This document shows, in pieces, positions 14,655-36,566 of a stretch of DNA of 64,000 nucleotides (the first letter of the stretch is position 1; every line of letters begins with the position of its first letter). Made by a program: the position numbers and the translations under genes. Location of the stretch: assembly GCA_047921155.1 (NCBI GenBank), contig JBLRWU010000001.1, positions 5,362 through 69,361 on the forward strand, given 5' to 3'. This DNA comes from Desulfurivibrio sp. Lineage in GTDB: Bacteria; Desulfobacterota; Desulfobulbia; Desulfobulbales; Desulfurivibrionaceae. Below the pieces are notes generated by a model. It was not told the DNA's origin. It saw only the letters and a program-made list of their open reading frames with translations, and made no database searches.

Positions 14655-14753
14655 TCAGCCTTCAGCAGCACCGCATCATGGGGTGATCCACCTGCATGGC
14701 GTTGCTTCACGCCGTCCTGCTTGCCCAGCCGTACGGCGCTGCTGAATGGTTTC
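14654..14753. mobile_element. Degenerate copy (C) of the GTAA-terminus hairpin/MITE family
   Basis: TTCAGCAGCACCGCATC...GATC...CTTGCC...CGGCGCTGCTGAATGGTTTC aligns with the 15209 copy. Ends are decayed and the interior is shorter. Confidence 0.6.
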
Positions 14754-15011: not shown

Positions 15012-15208
15012 GGCATCTCTCCTTAGCTTGTAGCTCAATGGACCGGTACGGAAGGTGGTTGCCATCCGCAATCGGGAACCGTACCACTCTTTTTACCTTA
15101 TATCGAAATGAAATCAAACCTTCTTTCTCGTCTCCCGCTAAAAGCGTCGTCACCCCGCCCTTACCTGCTTTTCCCTTGCCCGGTTGGGCCGGCAAGATTA
15201 GAATCTCC

Positions 15209-15316
15209 GTAACCGTTCAGCAGCACCCCATCTTCGGGCGATCAGCCAAGCTTACGTACACGGGGTACGCGACACTTGGCTGCTTACCCGAACCTGGGGC
15301 ACTGCTGAACGGTTAC
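15209..15316. mobile_element. MITE-like 108-bp element (copy A) with 15-bp terminal inverted repeats and an 8-bp target-site duplication
   Basis: GTAACCGTTCAGCAG...CTGCTGAACGGTTAC, flanked on both sides by GAATCTCC (15201-15208 and 15317-15324). Confidence 0.85.
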
Positions 15317-15365
15317 GAATCTCCGGACTAACCCTGAAACAGGAAAAATCGCCAAGGAACCAGCC

Positions 15366-35280: not shown

Positions 35281-35394
35281 AATAAGTATACTCCGCAAAA
35301 AAGACAAAAAAATAATTAGTTACACGATATTATTCAGAATAAACAGCAGGTTGCAATCTACCTTGGCCGCCCCCGGCGGTCAAGGTATTTTACC

Positions 35395-35503
35395 GTAAGC
35401 GGTCACGGGGCACCGCATCTTGCGGCGATCGTTCCGGCTCACGTACTGGCGTACGCATCGCCGTCCCGCTTGCCGCAACCTGCGGCACCCCGTGACCGCT
35501 TAT
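35395..35503. mobile_element. MITE-like hairpin element (copy B), 109 bp
   Basis: GTAAGCGGTCACGGGG...CCCCGTGACCGCTTAT, colinear with the 15209 copy. No TSD is visible. An extra terminus-like GTAACCGTTCAC sits at 35526-35537. Confidence 0.8.
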
Positions 35504-35558
35504 CTTGTGGCCTCTGTGATCGCTTGTAACCGTTCACCAGGGCCAACAAAGTGTTGAT

Positions 35559-36566
35559 TTAACGGGCTCCGGGAAGCGGCCGTTGCCCCGCCGCCACCCT
35601 GGTTCCGCACAAGTCGCTGAAGGAAGGGATTTCGGCCCCCTCTTCCAGAATACAGTCGTGGAGTTTGACGAAGGGATCGATCCGGCAACCGGGCCCGATC
35701 CGGGTCCGGCCGCTGATCTGGACCCCGGCGGCGATAATGGTGTCCGGACCGATCTCCACCCCCCCGGCGATCAGGGTGGTTTCCGGTTGCAGCAGCGTGA
35801 CCCCGCTCTCCATCAGTTCGCGGTTGCGGCGCTGCTGCAGCAGAGCGTGGGCCCGGGCCAGTTCCACCCGGGAGTTGACCCCGAGCATCTCGTCGGCATC
35901 GGGGCAGCACCAGTGCTGCACCTTGCGCCCTGCGGCCACCGCAATGGCAACGATATCGGTCAGGTACATCTCGTTCTGGCGGTTGTCGCTGCCCACCTCG
36001 GCCAGAGCCTGGAAAAGAAAGTCGTTGGTTACACAATAGATTCCGGCATTGACCTCGCCGATCTGCTTTTCCGCCGCGGAGGCATCCTTCTCCTCGACAA
36101 TCCGCAGCAGGCGCCCCCGGGTATCGCAGACCAGCCGGCCGTAGCCGAAGGGATCTTGCGGTCGGGCGCTGAGGACACTGAGGCTCGCTGCGTTACGCCG
36201 ATGAATCGCCAGCAGATTTTTCAGCGTTTGGGGGCGGATCAGGGGGGTATCGCCACAAAGGATCAGGGTGGTCCCGGGTCGACCGGCCAACAGATCGGCA
36301 GCGGCCAGTACCGCGTGGGCGGTGCCGTTTTGCTCTCGCTGCACGGCGATTTCCAGCTTCCGTCCGGCCAGCACCTGTTCAATCTCCCGGCGCTGATGCC
36401 CCAGCACCACCACGGTTGCCGTCGGCTCCAGGGGCGCCACCGCATCCAGCACATGATCGATCATCGGGGCAAAAAAGAGTTGGTGCAGCACCTTGGCCCG
36501 GCGCGAACGCATCCGGGTGCCCTTGCCGGCCGCCAGCACCAGGAGATAGAGGGGTAAATTGTCCAT
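35559..36566 (-). CDS. glmU: GlmU-like UDP-GlcNAc pyrophosphorylase with only a short hexapeptide-repeat tail (335 aa)
   Basis: LAAGKGTRM, Q.GTAHAV, GDTPL, PFGYGR, IVEEKDA, EVNAGIY, EMYLTD, GVNSR. It ends after a few LbH turns. Confidence 0.8.
   Translation of the reverse strand: MDNLPLYLLVLAAGKGTRMRSRRAKVLHQLFFAPMIDHVLDAVAPLEPTATVVVLGHQRREIEQVLAGRKLEIAVQREQNGTAHAVLAAADLLAGRPGTTLILCGDTPLIRPQTLKNLLAIHRRNAASLSVLSARPQDPFGYGRLVCDTRGRLLRIVEEKDASAAEKQIGEVNAGIYCVTNDFLFQALAEVGSDNRQNEMYLTDIVAIAVAAGRKVQHWCCPDADEMLGVNSRVELARAHALLQQRRNRELMESGVTLLQPETTLIAGGVEIGPDTIIAAGVQISGRTRIGPGCRIDPFVKLHDCILEEGAEIPSFSDLCGTRVAAGQRPLPGAR

Follow-up and report, generated by a model that had tools for sequence, protein, structure and literature searches.

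An abundant IS66-type MITE family of Desulfurivibrio and related Desulfobulbales with covarying stems and a strand-specific fold

The window analyzed here is a stretch of 64,000 nucleotides of Desulfurivibrio sp., and the MAG that holds it comprises 1.94 Mb in 173 contigs and is 80% complete. Genes were called with a home-made codon-usage caller (1721 genes, 91% coding), and the neighboring genes in the window were checked with Pfam. Two colinear 107-nt hairpin rods, copy A (15209-15316, + strand) and copy B (35395-35503, + strand), each form a single fold in this window. Copy A, a tail-less hairpin of the A subfamily recognized by sequence, fold and profile match, lies in the divergent spacer between tatA/B and znuA, and is flanked by a perfect 8-bp target duplication, GAATCTCC, on its left (15201-15208) and right (15317-15324) sides. 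Upstream of znuA is a promoter-like site (15176-15208; TTGCCC, 17-nt spacer, TAGAAT) that is conserved in two congeners, G006 and G007, and the left duplicate overlaps its -10 (TAGAAT). In the orthologous znuA upstream region of these two relatives, copy A is absent and the target is present as a single GAATCTCG or GAATCCCG. With copy A inserted immediately behind the -10, the znuA leader would now begin with a 108-nt hairpin. A third, decayed copy (14658-14751, + strand; found by repeat search, nhmmer 39.6 bits) has lost its GTAA terminus, starts 3 nt past the stop codon of a class-II aldolase gene (Pfam) and folds at -41/-44 kcal/mol.

Copy B is flanked by two minus-strand genes, one for a nucleotidyl-transferase and the other ZapB-like, with its left end 12 nt from the -35-like box of a promoter-like site of the ZapB-like gene (35355-35383, minus strand; TTGACC, 17-nt spacer, TAGATT), the -35 box being conserved in G006 and G007. 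The hairpin belongs to the B subfamily, as judged by sequence, fold and HMM and CM matches (G000:C1:40757-40863); its left terminus GTAAGCGGTCACGGGG pairs with the internal inverted copy CCCCGTGACCGCTTA, and its "top" strand, running from the left end to the tail, is the + strand of the window. The hairpin is followed by a tail and a third (right) terminus, CTTGTGGCCTCTGTGATCGCTTG (35504-35526, + strand), without the final two bases of the usual ...GATCGCTTAC; this tail matches other B-type copies and recurs, followed by an 8-bp duplication, at C4:21218, C29:971 and C161:502. Abutting the slightly truncated right terminus is a solo A-type tail with its terminus (GTAACCGTTCAC...AACGGGCT; 35526-35568, - strand), reversed and without hairpin, comprising 43 nt and representing the reverse complement of AGCCCGTTAAATCAACACTTTGTTGGCCCTGGTGAACGGTTAC, the tail that follows about 25 A-type hairpins. 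The initial annotation had recognized an extra terminus at 35526-35537 and took it as a hint of repeated insertion. The terminus (GTAACCGTTCAC) is indeed present at this position, but it is the end of a complete, reversed A-type tail; the hint itself holds: copy B adjoins a tail, without hairpin, from a second element of the A type, and G006 and G007 lack the entire composite of 174 nt (35395-35568). As neither copy A nor copy B is found at the orthologous sites of these two relatives, both are therefore insertions.

The left flank of copy B, ATTTTACC (35387-35394), is its target 8-mer as defined by alignment with the empty site of the relatives, where the 8-mer is single (ATTTTACG / ATTTTAAG); within the window, we did not see a clean right-hand duplicate. 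In the allele of runs X2 and X4, ATTTAACG comes straight after the right terminus. These two volcano-metagenome runs, from another study, contain a related strain with a shorter allele joining 35426 to 35557, comprising the first 32 nt of copy B, then 17 other letters (CCCCCGTGATCGCTTAC) and then 35557, and thus devoid of the hairpin interior and of 30 nt of the solo tail. No empty allele of the copy B locus was seen in the reads of four DNA runs, in which read-depth peaks over the repeat reflect copy number only.

The RNA minimum free energies of copy A are -70.2 (plus strand) and -84.9 (minus strand) kcal/mol and those of copy B -71.6 and -81.1 kcal/mol, respectively, with z-scores of -9 to -14 for the two copies against dinucleotide shuffles. 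Comparing A with B over 35 consensus pairs, 19 are the same, 15 differ by two-sided changes, 1 by a one-sided change and none is broken, with the count of 15 being somewhat inflated because the MAFFT alignment shifts the outer stem of B by one column; on visual inspection, about 10 pairs are truly compensatory. The CA/CA, TC/CC and GATC/GCTT asymmetries and the CGTAC-loop-GTACG apex are common to both copies, and on the minus strand the CA/CA becomes tandem U.G/G.U. All the features that the initial annotation had listed for two colinear copies with stems differing by paired changes are thus present in the sequence.

By BLAST and iterated nhmmer, we found 77 loci of this family in the MAG; 51 are full length, and about 20, i.e. 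about a quarter, lie at contig ends. The family is present in all eight congeneric genomes searched (8/8), with dozens to hundreds of candidates in the congeners, and look-alike loci are found in Desulfurivibrio, the Desulfurivibrionaceae and other Desulfobulbales and, more sparsely, elsewhere in the phylum. One element-bearing contig (L042, PWUU01000075.1), deposited as part of a Dehalococcoidia MAG and coming from the same sediment study as a Desulfobulbaceae MAG, is probably mis-binned. The copies are non-coding and 107-160 nt long, and most comprise three parts, namely a hairpin (left terminus plus internal inverted copy), a variable tail and a third terminus, with the unit reading in order: 8-bp direct repeat, left terminus GTAA..., 107-nt rod, tail, third terminus ...GGTTAC and the 8-bp repeat again. 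A-type tails measure about 43-49 nt and B-type tails about 25-29 nt, with some B-type copies having about 100 nt, and tail sequence differs from subfamily to subfamily. The terminal inverted repeats are, in the A type, a left GTAACCGTTCAG mirrored by an end ...GTGAACGGTTAC and, in the B type, a left GTAAGCGGTCAC mirrored by ...GATCGCTTAC.

Mobility is evident from the flanks: 88 of 166 copies have an 8-bp flank duplication with no more than one mismatch (50 being perfect) vs. 6 of 166 in a swapped-flank control, and the target 8-mers are AT-rich with no further consensus. With these duplications and the empty orthologous sites, the mobile family anticipated in the initial annotation is borne out. 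That annotation had treated the hairpin as the element; the hairpin is mobile, and tail-less forms such as copy A are shown to be mobile as well, but in most copies it is only part of a mobile unit to which the tail and third terminus also belong. Being short, non-coding and dispersed, with terminal inverted repeats, a duplication of fixed length and presence/absence at orthologous sites, copies A and B belong to a MITE family that is abundant in Desulfurivibrio and related Desulfobulbales. Four copies of 133 nt (C2:14262-14394, C35:13541-13673, C55:2809-2941 and C89:33-165 in G000) share the same 26-nt internal duplication of the 3' arm, and, as three of the four have 8-bp duplications, this small subfamily has itself transposed. 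Copies in other Desulfurivibrio species are 92-93% identical to copy A, while the flanking genes of the same genomes are 70-84% identical; this high identity means that either almost all of the 107 nt are under strong constraint, or the element has been exchanged among species.

The 5'-GTAA termini and the 8-bp duplication are traits of IS66-type elements. Within the IS66 family, ISPpa5a and ISPpa7 generate 8-bp repeats (PMC3281130), and ISDge4 has termini GTAACTGCTCAGCA and an 8-bp repeat (PMC12898284), to which the termini of some MITE subfamilies (GTAACTGTCCAGCAGC) are close. The IS66 copies of the congeners are 2415 bp long and comprise three ORFs (137, 117 and 523 aa), with termini GTAAGCGCTCAGCGAACCCC and perfect 8-bp duplications (CATCCCTG, CTGAATTC and TCAAGAAC); the MITE ends resemble these ends over about 24 nt, with about 17 of the 24 terminal bases being the same, and the inner 60 nt or so of the rod is MITE-specific, with no counterpart in the congener IS66 ends. 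IS66 is present in 5 of the 8 congeners. In the MAG (80% complete), we found neither IS66 (PF03050) nor Y1 (PF01797) transposases, nor indeed a transposase of any kind, and no IS66 transposase was found in G002, a 99%-complete congener with many MITE copies. A kb-sized autonomous element with the hairpin, or a long ORF-bearing version, was not found either, and GTAA terminus pairs with duplications 0.7-4 kb apart were restricted to the canonical IS66 copies of G001 and some B-type MITEs with tails of about 100 nt. With no transposase found in the MAG and no IS66 transposase found in G002, it is the similarity of the ends that links the MITE to IS66, and we surmise from this similarity that the family is most likely mobilized in trans by IS66-family transposases. 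Among the roles offered in the initial annotation, that of a transposase substrate is the one that fits this anatomy of IS66-type termini and 8-bp duplications best.

From the MAG and 100-odd loci of other genomes, 173 full hairpins were oriented, with an orientation model built from 26 tail-oriented copies and a strand score difference of at least 30 bits, and 120 of these were aligned on the better-folding strand. RNAalifold yielded 35 consensus pairs on these 120 copies, with double changes in 26 of the 35 and three or four pair types at several of them (e.g. CG 48, GC 43, UA 23). The cells in standard pairs amounted to 96.2% vs. 77.7% in shuffled alignments of the 120 copies, and the covariation score was 0.515 vs. 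0.185 in shuffles and at most 0.117 with the partner slid by 1-3 columns; none of 500 shuffles reached any of the covariation measures. Covariation extends to the inner stems, far from the termini, and more than 90% of the 120 copies share the same internal loops, tandem U.G/G.U and apex. A parsimony tree of 161 copies has 132 double changes in which Watson-Crick pairing is retained, with all event counts on this tree being rough because it was made from the same short alignment. The covariation that the initial annotation expected from more copies is accordingly strong on 120-161 copies, and the resemblance of A and B with their paired stem changes is beyond chance, as evidenced by the 77 loci and by covariation far past the shuffled and slid controls. 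A consensus structure supported by covariation, one hallmark of structured RNA, is thus found for the 120 copies (and also at the groEL locus, see below); a second hallmark, a match to a described family, is not, as a comparison with Rfam 15 returned no family, whether at gathering score or with E-values of up to 10, the best sub-threshold hits being plant miRNA hairpins at 25 and 16 bits.

The fold is also strand-specific. In 160 of 165 copies, the bottom strand (complementary to the strand running from left end to tail) folds more stably than the top strand, with mean stabilities of -76.4 (bottom) vs. -65.2 (top) kcal/mol under RNA parameters and -41.9 vs. -36.7 under DNA parameters. In the 161-copy parsimony set, bottom-strand G.U cells number 607 vs. 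69 for A.C cells, and, by cell counts, pairing amounts to 96.7% for the bottom vs. 87.2% for the top strand. Changes making a bottom-strand G.U number 100 vs. 47 making an A.C (parsimony tree, 161 copies); terminal and internal branches alike show this ratio of about 2:1, as does every gene context. The conversion of CA/CA to G-U pairs on the minus strand, pointed out earlier for A and B, stands, with the G.U asymmetry being a property of the whole family. A covariance-model search of 150 genomes of the phylum recovered full-length members in four other families, having the same three-terminus architecture and duplications, with the same strand folding better by 16-26 kcal/mol. We recognize that C>T exceeds G>A by 2.7-fold in pairs and by about 1.5-fold per base in unpaired columns; as the excess is also present in unpaired columns, part of the G.U bias may be mutational. 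There was no signal of replication-strand bias, with 24 copies on the G-rich vs. 30 on the C-rich strand, as judged by local GC skew on the MAG contigs, a comparison with little power.

The copies are not placed at random with respect to genes. In 96 of 135 copies, a co-oriented gene has its 3' end toward the hairpin (left) end of the element. This end is no farther than 12 nt from a co-oriented stop codon in 80 of 159 copies, vs. 7 of 70 for the tail end; in 30 copies, the stop codon is the TAA of the element's own GTAA. Copies between co-directional genes are sense in 53 and antisense in 29 cases (p = 0.01), and only 10 of 135 copies lie between divergent genes. Independently of the gene caller, stop triplets in the 12 nt before the left end number 97 in forward vs. 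67 in reverse orientation (p = 0.02), with no such bias at the tail end. In the spacer upstream of guaA (GMP synthase), an element is found directly after the upstream stop codon in two genomes (L051:6923 and L113:1140); the outer stems of these two copies are from different subfamilies, which suggests independent hits on a hot spot, or replacement. The family is among the most abundant repeats of Desulfurivibrio genomes; with about a quarter of its loci at contig ends it breaks MAG assemblies, and with copies at gene ends, promoters and operon spacers it affects annotation and gene expression.

This placement bears on the foremost alternative to a role of the fold in DNA, namely that the fold is read as RNA in host mRNAs (3' UTRs, leaders and operon spacers), where it would affect stability, processing or termination, as is documented for ERIC, Correia and REP. 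Tandem 5'-UG/3'-GU is a typical RNA motif, and its conservation in the family would be in keeping with such a role, as would the gathering of copies at gene 3' ends, half of them starting no more than 12 nt from a stop codon, the position of copy A just behind the conserved promoter-like site of znuA, and the terminator-like look of some subfamilies with AAAACG...CGTTTT ends. Orientation relative to transcription, a check put forward in the initial annotation, speaks against this reading, because the better-folding strand is antisense to the neighboring gene in about two-thirds of the copies. Moreover, copies with the top strand in the mRNA show the same excess of private changes toward bottom-strand G.U (39 vs. 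17), no promoter sites were called inside copies A or B, and the tails, being subfamily-specific, hold no conserved promoter from which the bottom strand could be transcribed. No terminator-like site or T-run was called in A or B, and the lack of an Rfam match also speaks against the RNA reading. On balance, we consider RNA function a possible yet rather doubtful explanation, even though some old copies may well have acquired an RNA role.

The best hint of such a host-level RNA role is the copy behind groEL. In the MAG, a degenerate copy (L155:967-1079, on G000:C66) begins at the groEL stop codon, before a conserved intrinsic terminator, and homologous hairpins, with degenerate termini (GAAAACG) and altered apices, occupy the groEL site in five congeneric genomes (L155, L158, L159, L160 and L161), with 12 of 45 pairs compensated among the five sequences. 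In the MAG copy, the tandem C.A mismatches of the mRNA strand have become Watson-Crick pairs, and here the mRNA strand has the greater stability. G006 and G007, the two genomes with the most similar groEL, lack the hairpin and have TAA instead of TAG as well as a different terminator. Other long hairpins are found at the 3' position of groEL in G008 and G010. Compensated changes at an orthologous site indicate that the structure can be kept in place at one locus, which, at least for part of the copies, favors the host-level reading. A small number of old copies, the groEL one among them, seem to be kept as 3'-UTR hairpins, and the conserved groEL hairpin is a candidate for a MITE retained by its host.

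A further possibility is that there is no selection on the fold at all, with the arms staying alike either by co-evolution of transposase-binding ends or by arm-to-arm correction within the palindrome, i.e. template switching or mismatch repair in an extruded hairpin. A copying mechanism would suit the 132 double changes on single branches, many of them transversion pairs without a wobble intermediate, and the outer 24 nt or so of both arms resemble IS66 terminal repeats, as co-evolving ends would. The three termini of the element allow "pairing" to be separated from "transposase recognition", as only the hairpin partner covaries. In the 67 copies for which the ends were defined, the left end agrees with the reverse-complemented hairpin partner at 14.2 of 16 positions vs. 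11.2 of 16 for the true right terminus, and at the most variable terminus position, the internal partner follows the left end in 93% of copies while the right terminus does so in 48%. Copies with differing left and right termini at this position have nevertheless transposed, as exemplified by their perfect duplications; the transposase therefore tolerates variation, and pairing is what is kept. That the internal partner tracks the left end while the right terminus does not indicates that complementarity itself is maintained, rather than transposase recognition alone. In addition, covariation extends to the inner stems, the asymmetric loops and tandem G.U, which arm-to-arm correction would erase, persist in more than 90% of the 120 copies and in distant families, and neither process would be expected to generate a strand bias in wobble pairs. 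Hence, we deem it improbable that the fold escapes selection, and the family provides a clean natural experiment on why palindromic MITE arms stay complementary.

Finally, a REPIN-like element moved as single-stranded DNA by a RAYT or an IS200/IS605-type tyrosine (HUH) transposase, which would share the hairpin doublet, compensatory changes, strand-specific fold and gene 3'-end location described for REPINs (PMC3116915), is very improbable and was rejected as the identity of this family, given that 8-bp duplications and GTAA terminal inverted repeats are hallmarks of DDE-type elements, that REPINs make no duplication, and that a Y1 transposase gene (PF01797) was not found in the MAG (80% complete).

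Collectively, an IS66-type MITE family with real covariation and a strand-specific fold is firmly established by these data. As to what the fold is for, we infer that selection acts on complementarity as such, in one nucleic-acid strand. We lean, with modest confidence when the firm parts are included, toward a MITE whose fold serves its own propagation as DNA. The element's own propagation is the likeliest reader of the fold for the following reasons: 1) the favored strand is usually not the mRNA strand; 2) the tails hold no conserved promoter and all young mobile subfamilies keep the fold; 3) it is pairing, and not end identity, that is maintained. One possibility is that single-stranded or extruded DNA of the strand with its 3' end at the left terminus would be used in IS66-type transposition. 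The host may then filter the resident copies, which would build up at the 3' ends of genes, in most cases oriented such that the mRNA contains the weaker-folding strand. We know of no need of IS66-family DDE transposases for a single-stranded or hairpin substrate. More specifically, and only tentatively, we postulate that the 107-nt rod might be a functional single-stranded module needed for IS66-type mobilization, with conserved loops, covarying stems and a fold on the strand that has the left terminus as its 3' end. Were this true, a DDE transposon family would use a structured single strand, for instance as a fold-back at the end of the transferred strand or as the arm of an extruded cruciform. 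A strand-specific fold that recurs from the genus to distant families of the phylum offers a testable handle on the poorly known mechanism of IS66 transposition.

The family is neither in Rfam nor in the papers we found, and a literature search revealed nothing on Desulfurivibrio repeats or IS66-derived hairpin MITEs. The novelty suggested by the initial annotation is thus upheld for the family itself but not for the compensatory changes in its arms, which are already known in hairpin-forming mobile repeats of bacteria such as REPINs (PMC3116915) and bcr1 (PMC3184786). In REPINs, the replicative unit is a hairpin in which two-sided compensatory changes are common, and a single-stranded DNA form is the proposed substrate (PMC3116915). 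Our MITE shares the hairpin unit and the compensatory changes, but REPINs are without terminal GTAA repeats and target duplications and depend on a Y1/HUH enzyme, and no such enzyme was found in the MAG. The AAAACG...CGTTTT subfamilies and the groEL copy are terminator-like in the manner of SPRITE, the pneumococcal rho-independent terminator-like repeat (PMC10969869); the likeness is limited to some subfamilies, copies A and B are without a T-run, and termination is here judged by the look of the sequence. ERIC/IRU of enterobacteria, Correia/NEMIS of Neisseria and bcr1 of the Bacillus cereus group are likewise dispersed, mostly intergenic repeats of about 100-150 bp forming long imperfect hairpins, with compensatory changes reported for bcr1 (PMC3184786) and effects on mRNA processing and stability for Correia and ERIC (PMC10969869). 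They differ from our MITE in having no sequence relationship to it and in duplicating TA or 5 bp instead of 8 bp; in our family, known from DNA sequence, the strand with the better fold is, as a rule, not the one co-transcribed with the neighboring gene. The closest kin are the IS66 insertion sequences and their derivatives (three-ORF IS66 and the ISBst12 group, e.g. ISDge4), with which the MITE shares GTAA termini, the 8-bp duplication and end similarity over about 24 nt, and from which it differs in being devoid of a transposase gene, in an inner stretch of about 60 nt that is unmatched in the IS66 ends of the congeners, and in having three termini instead of two.
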